A stretch of 59,057 bases of DNA, taken from the NCBI GenBank assembly GCA_036867785.1, contig CP145425.1, positions 682,001 to 741,057 of the forward strand. Direction: 5' to 3'. Below the pieces are notes generated by a model. The model searched no databases. It was not told the origin of the DNA and was given only the letters and a program-made list of their open reading frames with translations. Each line of letters opens with the position of its first letter. Within the stretch, counting starts at the first letter, position 1. A program made the position numbers and the translations under genes. The stretch is from Plasmodiophora brassicae (taxonomy: Eukaryota). Positions 27,407-36,362 of the stretch are shown here, in pieces.

Positions 27407-27988
27407 ATGGACGACGACCACGCCAGGCGAGCCCTGGTCGTGATCGACATGTCGGTCGAGCAGGTCGTCGACGACCTGTACGGGCGCGCGCCCGTCATCG
27501 ACAACATCAACCGGCTGGTCGAGGCGACGGGCGCCGTGTTCGCGGCGTCGTTCGACTGCCGCCTGTGGATCGGTGCGCCCAGCGAGACGTCGCTCTGGGC
27601 CGTGTACCCGGGCGTCGGGTCGGCCGGCAGCGCCGGCGCCCGCCTGCTGCCCGAGATCGACCCGAACGGCCGGCTGGCGTTCGTCGCGAAGCGCAACTAC
27701 TCGTGCTTCTTCGAGACCGACCTGGACGATCGGCTCGGGCGGGCCGGCATCCGGGACGTCTACCTGGCCGGCATCAACACCGACTTCTGCGTGTTCGCCA
27801 CCGCCCTGGACGCCTTCTACCGGCGGTACACGACCCGTGTCGTCCACGACGCCGTCACGTCCGTCCTGGGGCGGGACGCGCACCGGGCCGGCCTGGCCCG
27901 CGTCCAGGCCCACTTTGGCCCGCGCGCCCTCGTCGCCACGGCCGACGTCCTCCAGCTGCCCTCACTACAGGTGCACCGGCGTGGGTAA
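27407..27988 (+). CDS. Isochorismatase/nicotinamidase-family cysteine hydrolase
   Basis: ALVVIDM, KRNYSCFFETDL, LAGINTDFCVFATALDAF, VVHDAV motifs. Confidence 0.85.
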   Translation: MDDDHARRALVVIDMSVEQVVDDLYGRAPVIDNINRLVEATGAVFAASFDCRLWIGAPSETSLWAVYPGVGSAGSAGARLLPEIDPNGRLAFVAKRNYSCFFETDLDDRLGRAGIRDVYLAGINTDFCVFATALDAFYRRYTTRVVHDAVTSVLGRDAHRAGLARVQAHFGPRALVATADVLQLPSLQVHRRG

Positions 27989-28008: not shown

Positions 28009-31000
28009 TCATGGCATGTGCAGGCGGACGTAGGCCCGCGGGATGTACCCTCGGCGACCGTCGGCGGCGCAGGCGAAGCCCCAGCCCTCGTCCGTGTCCC
28101 GGTACCGGTCGAACAGGTCGCCGGCCGCGAACGACAGCTCGCCGTTCTTGGCGTCGCCGACGAAGTCGTACAGCGCCTCGTAGACGGGCGATGTGTCGTA
28201 CGATGCCGCCGTGGTGGCACCTGTCGATGTCATCGTCGTCGTCGTCGTCGTCGTCCCGTCCGTGTACCTGTCGGCCTTCTTGGTGAACGTCGTCGCCATG
28301 TCGCTGAGCAGGTCCTCCCAGGGCGACCGGCACGACGTCGTCGTGTCCTGCGGGGCGTCGGCGGCGGCGCTGGACGTCGCCACCGACGACCGGGTGACGA
28401 TGGAGGTCCACCAGGGGTCGTCCGCCGGCACCTTGTAGCCCGAGCGCCCGGACGACGATGACGACAATGATTGTGGCAGGCGCGTCGACGTCACCTGGGA
28501 GGCGGTCCTGTAGGGCGTGCCGGCCCGGCGGGCGTCGCCCCCGCTGCTGCCCTGCATCATGGAGATCATCGACACGGGGATGTCGTTCGCCGGCACCGCC
28601 TCCTCCTGCGCCTTCCGGTACTGCGTCGCGAGGATGTTCAGCTGGTAGACGATCGCCAGCAGCGCCGCCGCCGCGTCCAGCGTCAGGAACGCGGGTTCGG
28701 CGACGGCGACCTGGGCCCTGTACGACGCCGGCCATGCGAGCGACCAGGTCCAGAGCAGCGACGACCCGAGCAGGACCAGGCCCATGGCGGTCGTCAGCCT
28801 GCGGACGAACGCGGCGATCCGCATGTACCTGCAGCAGCAGAACGTCAGCTCGCTGGGTCGACGACGACGATGACGCGCGCGCGCGCTCGTCCGTTACGAG
28901 TTGGCCCTGGTGGACGCCTTCCCGACGGTGGCGAACTGGACGGCGAGGCCCGTGGCGATCGTGCCGCCCGTGACGGGGATGACCAGGGCGACGGCGGCGG
29001 TGGACGCGCAGACGACGGCGGCGGCCAGCGTGTCCAGGGCGGGCAGGCGCAGCGCGTACCCGAGGACGAGCAGCGGGCCGGGCGAGACGGCGACCAGGGC
29101 GACGGTCAGGCGCAGCGTCCAGGCGATGGCCCGCAGGGTCGCCAGGTGCCCCGGCGTGTACCGCCCGGCCATGTCCTCGACGCTGGCCCAGATCGTGGCC
29201 AGCAGGGCGATCAGGTAGGCGAACGCGGCGAACTGGATCGACTGGGTTAGGGCGGCCAGCGCCCTGGCCACGTACGGGCCGACGTCGGGCACGGCCGCCG
29301 CTTGCACCAGCAGCAGCAGCAGGCGCAGGGCCGACCGCCCGACAACCAGCGCGTTCATGACGCGGAACGAGCGCAGGGCGCTGCGGTTGGCGATCAGGCG
29401 CGGGGCGGCGACGGCGCAGGCCAGGGCGGTCGCCAGGGTCGCGCAGGCCACGGCCGAGAACGCGATCGAGACGGGCGCGCCCAGCGTGGCGTCGTCGCCG
29501 GGCGACGGGCGCTCCACCAGGACGAAGTCGGTGAGGTGCGTGCAGGCGCAGGCCAGCGGCGGGCCGGCGACGACGGTGCACCCGGCGCCGCTCATCGTCG
29601 TGCGGTCGGCGCTGAGCCACATGCAGGCGACGTTGCCGGGCGTCATGCGCTCCGACACGACCGGCATCACCATGGTGACCGGGTCGGGCAGGTTGGTCAC
29701 GGCGGCCGGCGACGACGACCCGTTCGCGTACACGCTGACCGACAGGATGCCCGTACCCGCCCACGACGTCGACACGACGCCCAGCGACACGCCCGCGTAC
29801 CGCGCTCGCAGCGCCAGCGGCACGTCCACCCGGCACGAGGTCGCACACGACGCCGACGCCGCCGCCGGCGCGTACGCGTCCACCCGGTACGCCTGGACGA
29901 CGAACGCGCTGGTGCGTATCGGGGCGCGGCACGATCGGGTGCACTGCGACGCCGTGTCGACGTCGTTCAGCGTGTCGACCGCGACCCGCTCCACGACCGC
30001 CTGCAGAGCGCGTCAGTGAGCAACACGCTCGTCATTCGCCCGATGTACCGCACCTGGGCGGCGCGCGGCACCTCGCCCTCCCTGCTCAGGACGCGCAGGC
30101 AGGACGCCGTCGTCAGCGACGTGGCCATGCGGGCCGACGCGCTCAGCGGCGCCGCCCAGCCGCTGATGAACGCGTGGACGGCGTCCAGGGCGGCGCTGGC
30201 CATCGGCCGCGTGATCAGGTCGTCGTCGTCATGATCGTTGTCGTCGTCGTCGTGCGCGATCATGGCCAGGGCCCAGGCGGCCGCCGTGGTCGCGTCCGGC
30301 GTCAGGGTCGTGGTCGTCGTCAGTCGGGGTGCCACCAGGCCCAGCAGGCGCAGGCGCGTCGCCGTCGCCGCCTGCGTCGGCACGGCGTTCATCAGGGACG
30401 CGGCCGCACAGGCCACGTCGACCTCGCTCATGTCGGGCAGGGACAGGCGCTGCGCGACCAGGTCGGCCACGTCGACGGGCGCCGCCGGCGGTCGCACGAC
30501 GACGGTGACGGGGGCGGCGGTCGCGCACGATCGCTGCCCGGCGCCCGGCGTCGTCGTCGCCGCCAGCACGGCCGTGATGTTCAGCGCGTACCCGTTGGAC
30601 GCGTCGCCGACCGGCAGGACGGTCTGCAGGCGCGCCAGGCAGGCGCCGTCGCCCAGGGCGCTCGGGTACGCGCCGCCCCGCATCATCGCGTAGAACACGG
30701 CGCACGACGTCGACGACGACGACGGCACCGACAGGGTCACCGTGTCGACCAGCGCCGTGATCGGCCGGCCGGCGGGCGCCGCCACCACCACCGATGCGGA
30801 CGCGGCCGGCCAGGCCGACGGCGCCGTCGTCACCGACGTCTGCGCCCGGTGCACGGCGCCGCCGAGCGTCAGCGTCACCGTGAACGTGTACGTGCGGGCG
30901 CCGGCGCGCAGGGCGCAGGGTGCCAGGCGCAACTCGGCGTCGGACAGCGACGTCAGGACGGCGATCGATCCGGGGTCGCCCGCCGCCACGTCGTCGTCGT

Positions 31001-34000
31001 CGTCGTGGATCGACCAGCGCAGCGTGTCGCGGTCTAGGTCGAAGGCGGCGGCGGCGGCCGGCGACAGCACCGCCGTCAGGATCAGCGTCTGCGCCACGTC
31101 GATCGGGGCGTGCGGCGCCGCCGGGCCCTGGATCGAGACGGGCGGGGCGACGGTGCTCGGTGCCGCCGGCGACGTGCTCCGACGCGGGCGACCGATCGAC
31201 AACCGGGCCGACGACGAGGTCGGACGCTTGCCGGCCCGTCCCGACGTCGACGGCACCCGCACGGGTCTGCGCAACGTCGTCGTCGTCCTCGTCGGAAGGG
31301 ACCGGGTGCTGGGCGCCGGGACGACCAGCATGGCCCGCACGGCGCTGTGCAACAAGGCGAAGTTGTCGGCGTCGGCGTCGAGGTCGTCGACGGCGAACCC
31401 GCCCAGGGCCATGACCTTGACGAAGGCGGCCTTGGCGGCGATGGACGCCGGGTTCTCGTACGAGACGACAATGCCGCTGCCCGCATTGTAGAGGAAGGCG
31501 GCCTGGCTGACCGGGTCCCACTGGTCGAGCCAGGCGCCCGGCGTCGCCGCCTGCCGCAGGGCGAGCAGGTCGCCGTACCGGTAGTGCTGGGCGACGTCGG
31601 TCGCCCCGGTGGCGTACGCGGACCCGGTCGCCGCGAACACGCCCGGGTAGAACGGGCCGGGGATGGGCGCCGACAGGTTCCAGGCGGCCCCGTACACGGG
31701 CAGGCCCAGGACCAGCTTGCAGTGCGGGACGCCCCAGTTCAGCAGCTGGACGACGTTCGCCTCGATCGAGTAGTACTCGGGCGACGCCGCGTTGAAGTGC
31801 AGCGGGTTCAGGTGCCCCGGCACGGGCGACCAGGTGCCCCTGCAGGCCGCCGTGCGGTCAGCGCGGGGCGCCTTAGCGGCGATGCACGGGGCCGCCGCGA
31901 CGCGACGTACCACATCCACTCGTTGGCGTACTCGATAAAGTCGACGTGCGGGACGATGGCGGGGAGGTCGTAGGCGGCGTACATGGTGTCGGCCTGGACG
32001 GTGACGGTCAGGGACAGGAGGGCGCCCGGGGGCATCTGCGCCCGGAACATCTGCATCAGGACGGGCAGCTGGGTGCGATCCGTCGGCAGGTGCGGGTCGT
32101 TCTGGTAACTGGCGCCCAGCATCGGGCTGTCTGCACCGGGGCGGAGGGGGCACCACGCGCACCGTCAGCGACCGCGGTGCACCCGGCGGCGCCGTACCCC
32201 GACTTACTCCAGTTGACGTTCAGGCCGTCGAACCCGTACTGCTGCATCATGGCGACGCAGGAGGACACGAAGGCGGACCGGCGACCGGCGTCGGAGACCA
32301 GCGAGCTGAACATGACGTTCTGGCCCAGCTGCAGGATCGTCGTCAGGTGCGGGTACTTGAGCTTCAGCCGGCGCAGCTGGTTCACGTCGCCGTGGTACGG
32401 GTCGCCCGTGTCGTTGCCGAGCGTGTTCGCCCCGAACACCCGCACGAGGTCGTTCACGGGCGACGCGAACTGACACTGCCACGACGCGTTCGCCCCCGCC
32501 GACTCGTAGATGACGTGCGTCAGCAGCGAACCGTCGATGGCGGCGACCGGCAGGTACGCGTCCTTGTAGCTCGCGTATCGCCCAATGACGCGCGTTGCTG
32601 TCTGCAGAGCGGGCGTCGCCATGCCTCCCGACGTCGAGCTCGCGCGGACGGGTGCGCACGCACCCGGCGCCTGCCGCGCGTAACTCGGAACGGCGCCGCC
32701 CGACGGTACGTAGGCGGGCTGCCCGAGGCAGGGGGCCGAACCCTTCAACGCCACCTGCATGGCCGTCACGATGTCGAACGCGGACGTGTCGCCGCTCACG
32801 TCGGTGAATATGACGCCGCCCAGGTTGTTGGCCGCGATGTACGCCGCCTTGGCGGCCATGGTCTGTGCCGACTCGACCGGAATCCAGACCAGCGACGACG
32901 GGTCGTACAGCACGCTGGCGTTGCTGCTCGCGTCCCAGACGACCGTGCAGGACGAGGGCGCGCCCGAACAGAGTTGCATGGCGTCCCGGTACCGGAACAG
33001 GCCGTTGTCAGTGGCCCCCGCTGTGTACGTCGTCCCGGGGGCGAACAGCGCCGGGAACGACGCGGGGACGTTCGACGTCAGCTTCCACGCCGGATACGAT
33101 AGCGGCACGCCCAGGATGAACTTGCAGGGCGGGACGCCGGCCGCCAGCGCCTGCACGACCAGGCCGTCGACCGTGTCGGAGCTGGGCGACCCGACCGTGA
33201 AGAACAGGTTGGCGTAATGCGCCGTCGACGTCGACCAGGTGCCGTACAGGCCGAACGTGTCGGCATGGATCCAGTCGACCTGGTTGGCGATGCCGGCCAG
33301 GTCGTACCTGGGGTACAGCGTGCCCGCGTTGAAGTTCACGTTCGCCGTCAGTAGCAGGCCTGGGTCTTCCGTCCGGAACGCCGCCAGCAGCAACGGCAGG
33401 TTGGCCTTATCGGCCGGGCTGTGCACGTTCATCCAGGCGCCGCCCATCACTGGGTACTCTGTGGACAGACAGACAGGCACGTGAGATGGCTGCATCACGT
33501 GCATTACGCGCGCGAACAGGTGAAGGTCAACGTACGCCAGCGGATCTCGACGCCATCGAACCCGTAGTACCGCGCCAGTTGCGTGCACGACGACGCCAGA
33601 AGATGGCGACCGGCATCGCTGGCGGCGATTACACTGACGTTCGTCGAGAAGGAATACCCGCCAATGGAGACGAGCGTCCGTAGTCGTCCGGCATTGCCGG
33701 CCTGCTGCTTCAGGAGGCGCAGCTGGTAGAAGTTGCCCCTGTACGGCGTGGCAGCGTTCGTGTCGTCACCCAGGGCATTCGACCCAAACGTCTGCTGGGT
33801 ATCGAACCAGGCGTTGTCCACGGCGCAGCGCCCTTCGACGATGTCGAACCCTTGGTAGACGATTTCGGTGAACAGGGCGCCGTTGATGCTGGCGATGGGC
33901 AGCACAGACGTCTTGTAGTTGAGGACAAATCCGATAATGTGGCTGGTCGTACCGGGGCCGGTCGCCGAGATCGAACAGTTCATGCACGGTTGCGGTGGTA

Positions 34001-34073
34001 CGGCGGCGGCGTGAGTGTGTGTCACGACGCCGGCAAGGACGTAAGCAAGCAGCGAGCTGTGCCAACGCCACAT
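28009..34073 (-). CDS. Receptor-like protein: signal peptide, 2 GH18 chitinase-like domains (catalytic motif substituted), REJ/PKD-like region, GPS motif, 7TM, C-terminal SH3; ~6 exons
   Basis: GH18 motifs (LVSIGG, GFDG, KFILGVP/KLVLGLP, AAKAAYI..NLGG); GPS C-W...GC...CACTHLTDFVLV; seven hydrophobic helices; SH3 ALYDFVGDAKNGELSFAAGD...EGW...GYIPRAYV; introns at ~33459-33535, 32131-32207, ~31841-31909, ~30002-30051, ~28829-28897. Confidence 0.75.
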
Positions 34074-34855
34074 GATATTACATGGAGTAGGGTAAGCGTA
34101 AGTGATCACATAGGTCGGTACCCTGGGCTTGATCGACACAGACACAGCAGTCCAGTACAGGACAGTCACGTTGAGATGGACAGTCGGCTGCAGGGGCGCG
34201 CGCGCGTACGTGTTGGTCTACGTACAATTATTACGACTAAGCAATAGTACGCTGTAAAACAGAAACAGCATCTTAATTATGTTGGGGTCCGTTCTTCCCG
34301 ACAGGGCGCCCCGGGTTACGGATTAGAGCCTGGGAACCGGCAGCGTGCTACAGGAACGTCGGCCCTGCAATCGATGTGCGTTCCCCCTGCGTACATGCAC
34401 GATCGTGACGTCGGTCGTCTAGGGATCCCGTTTCTGGAACGAGTATAACGTGATGATAATTAGATATCATATCGCACGCGCATCGAAAATCGAGCTGTTG
34501 GACTGCAATGGGCATCAAGCTGTAACCATCCGCACGTCTGGACCGCTTGGCGCTTGAAGCCCGACGATGCGGTTGCCCTAACAATGCACTGTATCGGACT
34601 GAAATGGGGCAGTCAAGGGATCGAAGCGAAGTTCCGCTCATCGAAATCCATTTCAGTCCGATACAGCAGTGCCTGCTCGAGCAGTACACCTCAGCAGAAA
34701 GTGAAGGACAATTCGTCCTACAGAAGCTGGTCAGCAAGAAACGGAGACGACGACCCCTCTAGACTGTGACGATAAATATAGGCCGCCGCCCTCAAGAGTA
34801 CGAATCGGTGCCCGACAGAATGCCAGCGCAGACGTCGCCGTAGTTTGGTTTCAGA

Positions 34856-36097
34856 ATGTTCCCGGTCAAGGGCGGCTATCAGCTGTTCCTGACAATATGT
34901 ATGCCTCTCTGCAGGGCTGAATTGATCGTCTGCTTCGCCGCCGCCCTGGACATTGGTTTCGTTGCCCCGTCCTCCTTCAGGCAGGGCGGTCTGAGCAGTG
35001 TCCAAAATGCCCGGTACCCTGCGAAAGACGACGACTACCGAGCAAATGCGTTCTTGATGCCGCCATCATCCGTGGCGAAACCCACGTACAACTTGTCGAA
35101 AGTCATCTGTGAAGACCTGCGCGCTAGCGCTGACCTAGGCGACATCTCGACCGGCTCTCCTCTCGATATGGTTACCGAACCTGCACTGCATGATGCAATC
35201 GCTGATGCCATCAGCTACTATTGCATCGACATCCACGCTGACGACCGGATCGCGAAGAATGTCTACCTGGAGTGCCTCGATGGCGGTCGGAGTACTGAGG
35301 GTGGATGTGGATATGACTGGTTTGAAGAAGGGGCGTCCCCACGTGCTGATCATGTGAAGGAACAGACGTCATCACCAACGCCAGCTACAGCCGAAACTGC
35401 TCGTAGCCAAGGGCGTTGCTCAACCGGATGCGCCCTGCAGAGCGCTGTCCTGAAGCCGAAGCCATCCCGATGCCTAGACGGTAGCAGCGCGTCAAGGAAA
35501 GTGCAGTGCTTCATTAACGGTATCAGTAGTGACACGGCTAAACAACGTCTCTGGCCGAGGTCGAGGATCCGCAAAGGGCTCTCTACTGTGGAACAAACTT
35601 TGCCAACGGCGCTGCTCGTTATGCGCCTGCGCGAAACAGGATGTGCCATTGCGACGTCTAAGAATCGCCTTGCGCGCTCTCTGTTACGGAAAGCGCTCGA
35701 GTTTACCAAATGGCATCCCATGAAGACCGCTGTCACTGGGGGCTTCTTTGCTGCGACACTTAAGGCTGTTCGGAACTCTCCGGTATCACCAACATCTCAC
35801 ATATCGACCTTCCGGAAAGTCGGCATCATTATCGCTGGGACGATCGGTATCGGTGTCGGTGCAGCAGGCGTTATCCACGGCGCCAAATTTGTTAAGGCGA
35901 AGAACGTGAAGGTGGGCGTCAACAAGGCTATCGCCAAGGCCGTTGCAACCTTGAAGATCCTCTCACGTAAGCAGGGCTTACCGAAGCAGGATACGGTTGC
36001 TTCCTCCAACGAGGCTCTTACAACGACTACCGCGCCCCGCGTTACTGTATCAGCAGCCCTTGCAGTTATCGGTGCTGTCGTAGCGACTTGTTGGTGA
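34856..36097 (+). CDS. Hypothetical protein, 413 aa, hydrophobic N- and C-termini
   Basis: Long ATG-initiated ORF in lower-GC DNA where chance ORFs are less likely; no family recognised. Confidence 0.5.
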   Translation: MFPVKGGYQLFLTICMPLCRAELIVCFAAALDIGFVAPSSFRQGGLSSVQNARYPAKDDDYRANAFLMPPSSVAKPTYNLSKVICEDLRASADLGDISTGSPLDMVTEPALHDAIADAISYYCIDIHADDRIAKNVYLECLDGGRSTEGGCGYDWFEEGASPRADHVKEQTSSPTPATAETARSQGRCSTGCALQSAVLKPKPSRCLDGSSASRKVQCFINGISSDTAKQRLWPRSRIRKGLSTVEQTLPTALLVMRLRETGCAIATSKNRLARSLLRKALEFTKWHPMKTAVTGGFFAATLKAVRNSPVSPTSHISTFRKVGIIIAGTIGIGVGAAGVIHGAKFVKAKNVKVGVNKAIAKAVATLKILSRKQGLPKQDTVASSNEALTTTTAPRVTVSAALAVIGAVVATCW

Positions 36098-36362
36098 GCT
36101 ATGCATGTGCGATGCCAGGCACTAACGACCTGCCAATAATGCATGAACTGTTGACACGTCTTCGTACGAATAAACAAATGTCTAAGCGCAGAAACGGGGG
36201 AAATCGTTGCCCTGACTCGTGCCGCGATCACGTTGTATCCTGATGGTTTTCCGTGGCATGGGGAATTCCATAATTGACGGTTCCGACTCTATCCAAACGG
36301 CAACGTGGCATTCCTGCGTTAAGCAAAGCGAACCCTACCGCTAGTTTCTGCTACTACTACTA

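Follow-up and report, generated by a model that had tools for sequence, protein, structure and literature searches.

Can a gene that is built like a chitinase in its first half encode a membrane receptor in its second, and what would such a protein sense? This question is raised by a locus of the plasmodiophorid Plasmodiophora brassicae, which lies at 28009..34073 in a 59,057-nt stretch of assembly GCA_036867785.1 (contig CP145425.1, positions 682,001 to 741,057 of the forward strand; hereafter the window, with position 1 as its first letter). A first-pass annotation of the sequence had proposed that the locus carries two GH18 domains, an REJ-like region, a GPS motif, seven transmembrane (7TM) helices and an SH3 domain on one gene. 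Our analysis confirmed this observation as a whole, with the REJ label holding only transitively. We favor, as a tentative reading that falls a little short of probable, a single gene for an adhesion-GPCR-like (GPCR, G-protein-coupled receptor) surface receptor of the GAIN/GPS-7TM type, in which a catalytically dead GH18 pair provides the ligand modules, the likeliest ligand is a glycan of the N-acetylglucosamine (GlcNAc) type, cleavage occurs at HL/T (a slash marks the cut here and a boundary or exon junction below), and the signal passes through a G protein and/or the SH3 domain.

The minus strand from 34073 to 28009 contains a succession of five long frames free of stops, and joining the open reading frames (ORFs) at splice sites gave a minus-strand gene (34073..28009) of six exons and five GT..AG introns, with a 5718-nt coding sequence (CDS) for 1905 amino acids (aa) (Table 1). 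No in-frame ATG stands between the preceding stop and the start codon at 34073, and the TGA at 28011-28009 ends the frame. The two pairs of splice sites proposed earlier, 33535/33459 and 32207/32131, became introns 1 and 2 of the five, both GT..AG. The element CTGAC was found 16-38 nt upstream of the AG in four of the five introns, against 0.0013 per position window-wide. The donor of intron 4 (GTGCGG) is the weakest of the five, and intron 5 keeps the frame but contains a TAA, such that its retention would truncate the protein after TM5. The G+C content of the window ranges from 55 to 76% in 2-kb steps. Exon 4 spans the C-terminal half of the second GH18 domain (GH18-2), the linker, the REJ-like module and the helical region in one frame of 596 codons, and thus the enzyme-like and receptor-like halves stand on one exon.

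The proposal of a single gene is upheld by this exon and by a colinear orthologue. The best relative found with exon 5 was P0001, a 1846-aa protein of the potato-scab relative Spongospora subterranea that UniRef names 'GH18 domain-containing protein' (RepID A0A0H5QTU0). Residues 29-1710 of the model are colinear with residues 24-1693 of P0001 (30.8% identity, 707 bits), with no gap at junctions 1, 2, 3 and 5 and a 3-residue gap near junction 4, in a poorly conserved stretch. At junction 2, NVNW/NSPMLG stands ungapped opposite NVYWEYPMLG of P0001, and at junction 3, ..EWMW/GTW.. stands opposite ..SFWGRW... This colinearity makes a two-gene artefact unlikely. P0001 shows the same order of parts, namely a signal, two GH18 domains, an S-rich linker, an REJ-like module, a GPS (CQCRHLTDF), seven helices and an SH3-like end, at a much lower G+C composition than the window gene. 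The S. subterranea entries of this accession series are presumably transcriptome-derived; if so, one message carries the whole architecture in the sister genus.

The GH18 assignment is secure, and both domains have lost the residue on which catalysis depends. All four expected exon pieces matched the Pfam GH18 family (E of 2e-10, 1.2e-38, 9e-4 and 2.3e-15), far beyond chance, and 121 PDB sequences matched the GH18 part at an E of 1e-5 or below by phmmer; for the first domain (GH18-1) these included 5gzu (E 1.3e-34) and the Bacillus circulans-type chitinase 1itx (E 6.8e-12). In place of the DxxDxDxE motif, the domains read FDGVEIRWQYP (aa 172-182) and FDGLNVNWNSP (aa 589-599), which HMMER alignments placed opposite FDGVDLDW and FDGIDLDW (5gzu) of solved chitinases. 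The catalytic Glu is replaced by Gln (Q180) in GH18-1 and by Asn (N597) in GH18-2, so that neither domain carries DxxDxDxE, and the two aspartates before the Glu position are also replaced, by E and R in GH18-1 and by N and N in GH18-2. Read-through of introns 1 and 2 gives Arg or Ser at the Glu position, never Glu. Alternative splicing that restores the Glu was ruled out as well, given that the split codons begin with C in GH18-1 and A in GH18-2 and no acceptor can therefore yield GAA or GAG from these donors. The claim that the catalytic Glu is gone from both domains thus stands on the motifs themselves and on the split codons. GH18-1 of P0001 also lacks the Glu (FDGVEVRWLFP). Its GH18-2 (aa 559-570), unlike that of the window protein, keeps the Glu and lacks both aspartates (FDGINVYWEYP), so the window gene lost the Glu of GH18-2 in its own lineage, after the DxD had gone. 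Identity to the orthologue is 43% over GH18-1 and 38% over GH18-2, compared to 23-33% over other regions of at least 50 residues; the GH18 domains are thus the best conserved regions, which argues for a retained specific role. GH18 proteins that lack the catalytic Glu and yet bind chito-oligomers are well known.

At the other end of the ectodomain, the motif CACTHLTDF (aa 1416-1424) stands 17 residues ahead of the first helix, with predicted cleavage between L1421 and T1422. Without exception, the aligned proteins (5/5 and 6/6) keep C, W, G, C, C, C, H, L, T and F. A family profile searched against the PDB returned 12 matches at an E of 1 or below, all of them adhesion GPCR ectodomains or receptors (GAIN of ADGRG3, 1.8e-8; ADGRG1, 7e-6; ADGRL3, 1.7e-4), and two ADGRL3 matches continued from the GPS into the helices, to about TM3. 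Only the last ~80 residues before the predicted cut matched solved GAIN domains. A comparison by hhalign with a fish adhesion GPCR gave 94.6% probability over 63 columns, with the GPS alone aligned, and the window protein by itself reached an E of 0.088 against Pfam GPS, below threshold. From these profile matches and the invariant four Cys, Trp and HL/T, we take the GPS, and with it the end of a GAIN domain, to be established, in agreement with the earlier proposal of a GPS with the HL/T consensus.

About seven transmembrane helices follow, as had been proposed. Six segments reach a Kyte-Doolittle value of 1.5, and a weaker seventh (TM6) lies between them; the predicted fold of the orthologue region shows, with low confidence, seven long helices and a short eighth. 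The odd-numbered loops hold 3, 1 and 3 K+R residues and the even-numbered loops 0-1, which places the N-terminus outside and the tail and SH3 domain in the cytosol. In Smith-Waterman comparisons with shuffles, the helices of the window protein alone scored z 15.1 against P0005 and z 4.2 against P0004, two GPS proteins of protists, and residues 129-345 of exon 5, from the GPS to TM5, aligned with ADGRD1 in a single-sequence phmmer search (E 1.3e-3). The ten best language-model neighbours of exon 5 were all GPS and/or 7tm_2 clusters (0.77-0.82), which we treat as leads, and those of the orthologue helices were mixed class-B-like clusters (0.80-0.85). Full-length CD97 was the best Foldseek match of both low-confidence fold models (E 1.2e-5 and 5.4e-4). 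The next matches of the window model were the GAIN domains of CELSR1, GPR56, BAI3 and BAI2, over 74-92 columns at a predicted local distance difference test score (pLDDT) of ~55. The protein ends in an SH3 domain that matched SH3_2 (E 3.9e-7; 30.1 bits, cut-off 21.8) and SH3_1 (E 4.2e-7; 29.9 bits, cut-off 22.9), with SH3_9 at 29.5 bits against 30. The SH3 domain claimed earlier is therefore sound at a Pfam E of 4e-7, and its cytosolic location is that of the predicted topology.

The REJ label is carried by a relative. Residues 900-1130 of the window protein aligned with residues 100-330 of the protist protein P0002 at a Smith-Waterman score of 107, compared to 49.4 +/- 8.6 for shuffles, and none of 500 shuffles reached 107. 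Residues 157-300 of P0002 in turn matched Pfam REJ (PF02010; E 6.3e-6; 25.5 bits, cut-off 25). The window protein itself had no Pfam REJ match, and composition-adjusted BLASTP of the region was not significant against P0002 (E 1.5) or P0006 (E 0.18). Against P0006, a strong REJ protein (Pfam E 3.1e-45), the region gave a weak score that 5 of 500 shuffles reached. On these alignments, REJ-like is a fair label, transitive via P0002, and is not proven. The part of the Ala-rich stretch between this module and the GPS that is covered by both fold models has a pLDDT of ~30.

An exhaustive phmmer search with exon 5 found five proteins at an E of 1e-3 or below among 1.84 billion representatives, and the window's own protein was not among them. 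A word-index search of longer proteins with exon 5 returned nothing at an E of 1e-3, and the family profile in the same kind of search returned P0001 and P0006 among longer proteins and P0004 among those of near length. Since a word index has little power at 30% identity, these searches reveal little about how widely the family is distributed. P0004 (692 aa) and P0005 (1191 aa) are protist proteins with a GPS and a helix bundle homologous to the window protein, and P0002 (700 aa) and P0006 combine REJ with a GPS, P0002 also sharing the REJ-like module. Unlike the window protein, these four have no GH18 domain, and Pfam reported no SH3 in them. P0002 is G+C-rich and, like the window protein, abundant in Ala, with 37% identity between the two around the GPS; it could be a paralogue encoded in this genome or one close to it. 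Within the window, tblastn with the spliced model and P0001-P0005 as queries found no second copy of the gene. Judged by the sequences compared, the architecture is conserved in two genera and has so far been seen only in plasmodiophorids.

We propose a mechanism in which the dead GH18 pair would act as the ligand-binding head on a glycosylated stalk of a surface receptor in type I orientation. The likeliest ligands would be GlcNAc-type glycans, such as chito-oligomers or the chitin in the wall of the organism's own resting spores. The protein would be cut at HL/T with the ectodomain remaining attached, and a pull on the N-terminal fragment, or its loss, would expose TDFVLV... as a tethered agonist for the helix bundle. 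Output could then run through a G protein and/or through SH3 partners with proline motifs, for example, actin regulators. The long, potentially phosphorylatable tail ends in this domain. A narrower version, which we think unlikely as it stands, is a mechanosensor of cell-wall glycan, in which the GH18 pair grips the chitin of the organism's own spore wall, or fragments of chitin, and pull or release sets off, while spores form or germinate, the tethered agonist and an SH3-mediated remodelling of the cortex. If true, it would be an adhesion-GPCR-type chitin-wall mechanosensor of a kind not yet described, in Rhizaria.

Several results weigh against the receptor reading, and they bear on its ligand and on its class. 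In GH18-1, which retains SIGGY, DTFG stands for the MxYD motif (MTYD in the best PDB match), and Thr takes the place of the Trp in the C-terminal G..W.D; in GH18-2, SxGGW reads LGQN in the alignment, and the YD and Trp positions are also lost by eye. With the DxD, the Tyr-Asp pair in MxYD and the -1 subsite's C-terminal Trp replaced in both domains, the idea of a chitin lectin appears somewhat weakened, and chitin binding is not a given. From the lost -1 subsite residues, a different, non-chitin ligand would be almost as likely as chitin. The same protein might therefore have a GH18 pair that no longer binds chitin and instead binds another glycan or a protein, of the host or its own, or serves as a rigid scaffold, reporting something other than chitin. 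We regard this as possible if doubtful: the cleft replacements and the missing SxGGW of GH18-2 speak for it, and the orthologue shares the losses, with HD and TE at the Trp-Asp/Glu positions, so they are old and tolerated. Set against these points are the Glu-less GH18 proteins that bind chito-oligomers, the conservation of the two domains above all other regions (43% and 38%) and the SIGGY that GH18-1 keeps. PMC4815078 also gives chitin as a main wall component in this group.

The class of the helices is the second point at which the evidence runs against us. Pfam 7tm_2 did not match the window protein even at an E of 10; a 7TM-only phmmer query against the PDB was not significant (best adhesion GPCR, E 6); and 7TM-only Smith-Waterman comparisons with a bona fide 7tm_2 domain gave z values of 0.9 for the window protein and 2.7 for P0001. 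Both fold models, built from alignments of 5-6 sequences, are poor (mean pLDDT 52.8 and 54.7). The wide structural search with the helix bundle gave a flat plateau in which many classes of 7TM protein, rhodopsins and an adiponectin receptor stood together, with matches at Z 15-17 over ~250 residues (rmsd ~4.2 Å, low-confidence model). No adhesion GPCR was among the best 50 matches listed, which does not exclude the class, and the search shows only that the modelled helices can form a generic GPCR-like bundle. P0001, moreover, has no Pfam SH3 match at an E of 0.1 or below, and its SH3 region is only 28% identical. Of the earlier proposal of an adhesion-GPCR-like receptor, the GPS with HL/T and the seven helices hold, and sequence alone cannot place the 7TM part in the adhesion/secretin class. 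The main mechanistic rival is accordingly a tether that does not act through a G protein, a polycystin-1-like wall-to-membrane mechanosensor in which REJ and GAIN form a force link between spore wall and cortex, the helices are an anchor, and the SH3 domain connects to the cytoskeleton. An REJ module directly before the GPS is the layout of polycystin-1 and PKDREJ, REJ is combined with a GPS in other protists too (P0006 and P0002), and an SH3 domain suggests scaffolding over a G-protein route. We nevertheless consider such a tether improbable, given that the hydrophobic tethered-agonist pattern after HL/T is kept in all five family members, that the helix region matches GPCR bundles in the low-confidence model, that the TM1-TM2 loop has 13 residues, with seven helices rather than eleven, and that Pfam scans covering exons 5 and 6 gave neither PLAT nor a channel family. 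Membership of the polycystin-1 family itself was rejected on the missing PLAT domain and the seven helices.

The RNA evidence forms a third group of results against the receptor gene as modelled. The transcript check drew on contigs of four sequencing runs, whose RNA label was guessed; 32 of 248 pieces were listed, and strand and rare forms are not shown by such contigs. Among the runs listed as containing this DNA, none is recorded as RNA, and there are some labelled 'plant metagenome', a label that, like the short introns and the species of the orthologue, fits a plasmodiophorid, probably P. brassicae. Contigs covered 27, 26, 28 and 23 of 30 bins in the four runs, and most of the gene. None of the five sense joints was present among the contigs listed, in which introns 2 and 3 were never bridged as predicted; intron 5 was bridged unspliced in three of the four runs, intron 4 also in three and intron 1 in one. 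The only intron-like GT..AG joint among the contigs listed was a 60-nt skip at 32164-32223 with plus-strand ends (GTCAGC...TTGACGTTCAG), found in two of the four runs and in two studies. The skip overlaps intron 2 on the strand opposite the receptor gene and points to an antisense RNA that is spliced. Four other listed joints had non-canonical ends and a shorter side of just 20-22 letters. Two deeper contigs (depth 40.6 and 89.8) matched from 28021 (28021-29506) after 558-600 unlike letters, and where their match starts, the plus strand at 28019-28024 reads TGCAG/G, which is acceptor-like; splicing may have joined the antisense of exons 6 and 5 to a plus-strand exon that lies elsewhere. Most simply, what the four runs contain over the locus is mainly RNA of the plus strand (antisense or read-through), or DNA. 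Because the contigs are blind to strand and rare forms and 32 of 248 pieces were listed, a sense transcript is unconfirmed rather than refuted. These data could be taken to mean that the gene model is an artefact or the gene is decaying, with separate GH18 and GPS-7TM-SH3 messages or with a silent sense strand and antisense RNA only, and the unspliced cover, the plus-strand joint and the TGCAG at 28021 do fit plus-strand RNA, as the absence of all five joints (0/5) from the listed contigs fits an artefact. We consider this highly improbable, however, given that GH18-2 is linked to the REJ-like and helical parts by exon 4 within 596 codons, the 1905-aa frame is intact, the orthologue has the whole order in one protein, CTGAC stands in 4/5 introns, rare forms are lost from contigs and calling the runs RNA is itself a guess. 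The receptor reading remains the one we favor, and the features on which it depends are given in Table 1.

Table 1. Features of the GH18-GPS-7TM-SH3 gene, in window coordinates
Feature	Position (aa)	Strand	Details and basis
Whole CDS	exons 34073-33536, 33458-32208, 32130-31911, 31839-30054, 30000-28898, 28828-28009	-	1905 aa, 199.2 kDa, pI 6.27
Signal-peptide-like N-terminus	34002..34073 (aa 1-24)	-	MWRWHSSLLAYVLAGVVTHTHA/A; by inspection
GH18 domain 1	32737..33956 (aa ~40-420, contains intron 1); motif 33560-33451	-	Pfam PF00704, E 2e-10 and 1.2e-38 on two exon pieces
Intron 1	33459..33535	-	77 nt, GTACGT..CACAG, phase 1; splits Glu-position codon of GH18-1 (giving Q180)
GH18 domain 2	31323..32592 (aa ~469-842, contains introns 2 and 3); motif 32232-32123	-	Pfam PF00704 on three exon pieces
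Intron 2	32131..32207	-	77 nt, GTAAGT..GTGCAG, CTGAC 38 nt 5' of AG; splits Glu-position codon of GH18-2 (giving N597)
Intron 3	31840..31910	-	71 nt, GTACGT..CTGCAG, CTGAC 22 nt 5' of AG
S/T/P/R-rich linker	31152..31322 (aa 843-899)	-	S11 R11 T10 P9 of 57 residues
REJ-like module	30474..31151 (aa 900-1125)	-	Smith-Waterman to P0002, with shuffles
Ala-rich stretch, possible GAIN subdomain A	29956..30473 (aa 1126-1280, contains intron 4)	-	position only
Intron 4	30001..30053	-	53 nt, GTGCGG..CTGCAG, CTGAC 16 nt 5' of AG; frame shift between two long ORFs
GAIN subdomain B / GPS	29521..29955 (aa 1281-1425); CACTHLTDF 29550-29524	-	invariant residues and profile matches
Seven hydrophobic helices	28624..29475 (aa ~1441-1701, contains intron 5)	-	hydropathy, loop charges
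Intron 5	28829..28897	-	69 nt, GTAACG..CTGCAG, CTGAC 20 nt 5' of AG
S/T-rich cytosolic tail	28177..28623 (aa 1702-1850)	-	sequence, composition
SH3 domain with ALYDF, W and GYIPxxYV elements	28024..28176 (aa 1851-1901)	-	Pfam SH3_2, SH3_1

The surrounding DNA holds other genes. A convergent plus-strand gene at ~27430-27988 (Pfam Isochorismatase, E 2.1e-26) ends 20 nt from the receptor stop, so close that the 3' ends of both messages must meet or overlap; contigs reach a depth of 274-367 at the end of the isochorismatase-domain gene. Further downstream of the receptor gene, a long minus-strand ORF at 23324-~27100 matches Nucleoporin_N (E 3.4e-39) and Nucleoporin_C (E 3.6e-21) and encodes a Nup155/Nup170-type nucleoporin. 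Upstream, the G+C content falls to 55% at 34074-36100, where a plus-strand ORF of 417 aa (34844-36097) has no Pfam family. A plus-strand gene beneath the receptor gene was rejected by appearance, without a Pfam scan, given that the ORFs there look like G+C-driven frames.

The locus touches on a group of genes already listed as chitinases. PMC4471660 reports 16 GH18 'chitinases' in P. brassicae with internal domain duplications, one subgroup of which is expressed at spore formation and germination, and PMC4815078 puts chitin at 25% of the resting-spore wall. Table S1 of PMC10337504, as far as retrieved, lists two P. brassicae 'GH18_chitinase-like' proteins, of 1875 aa (195.9 kDa, pI 6.14) and 1968 aa (209.5 kDa, pI 5.27), and the present gene may be one of them, with a paralogue as the other. 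Neither the UniRef name nor the portions of PMC4471660, PMC4815078 and PMC10337504 available to us mention membrane helices, a GPS, an SH3 domain or a receptor part for these GH18 entries. Two 'chitinase' entries in published gene lists may thus be receptors, in which case the GH18 expansion in the group is to be read differently. Plasmodiophorids are obligate, unculturable crop parasites in which the sensing of spore-wall building and germination is almost unknown, and the gene and its orthologue provide a concrete candidate. GAIN/GPS receptors have been studied mostly in animals and few of their natural ligands are known; an ectodomain with a sugar-binding fold leads to a ligand hypothesis that is directly testable.

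The first-pass annotation did not recognize the architecture from any described family. We likewise found no description of it as a receptor in the literature searched, although the orthologue is already in UniRef under its GH18 name. Within that literature, a GAIN domain and a chitinase, or Glyco_hydro_18 and 7tm_2, occurred jointly only in unrelated papers, and a recent catalogue of GPCRs in animal relatives did not mention chitin, REJ, SH3 or glycosyl hydrolase. Ectodomain modules of the GH18 and REJ types and a tail SH3 were not found described for the adhesion GPCR class in the same literature.

Four known systems offer a comparison. The chitinase-like lectins, represented by CHI3L1/YKL-40 (PDB match at E 8.9e-14), resemble the window protein in having a GH18 fold with another residue at the position of the catalytic Glu. 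The window protein differs in that it loses further cleft residues, has two tandem domains and is tethered in a membrane receptor rather than secreted. With the family of polycystin-1, PKDREJ and sea-urchin REJ proteins it shares an REJ-like module followed by a GPS; it has no PLAT domain, seven rather than eleven helices and no channel-like C-terminal part. The bacterial RsgI anti-sigma factors, as described in PMC10328401, are an analogy only, in that they have an autoproteolytic domain and a signal path that spans the membrane, together with an extracellular part that senses polysaccharide. Their folds are unrelated, and RsgI has a single membrane pass and a bacterial sigma-factor output. 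The self-cleaving GAIN/GPS-7TM architecture is a known kind, and it is the sensor derived from a carbohydrate enzyme and the built-in SH3 domain, in Rhizaria far from animals, that were not found described. Even though the bundle has no Pfam 7tm_2 match and the lineage is plasmodiophorid (Rhizaria) rather than animal, the window protein shares with the metazoan adhesion GPCRs (class B2: ADGRG3, ADGRG1, ADGRL3, ADGRE5/CD97 and ADGRD1) a GPS of four Cys, Trp and HL/T directly before TM1, a hydrophobic stretch after the cut, seven helices and a large modular ectodomain.

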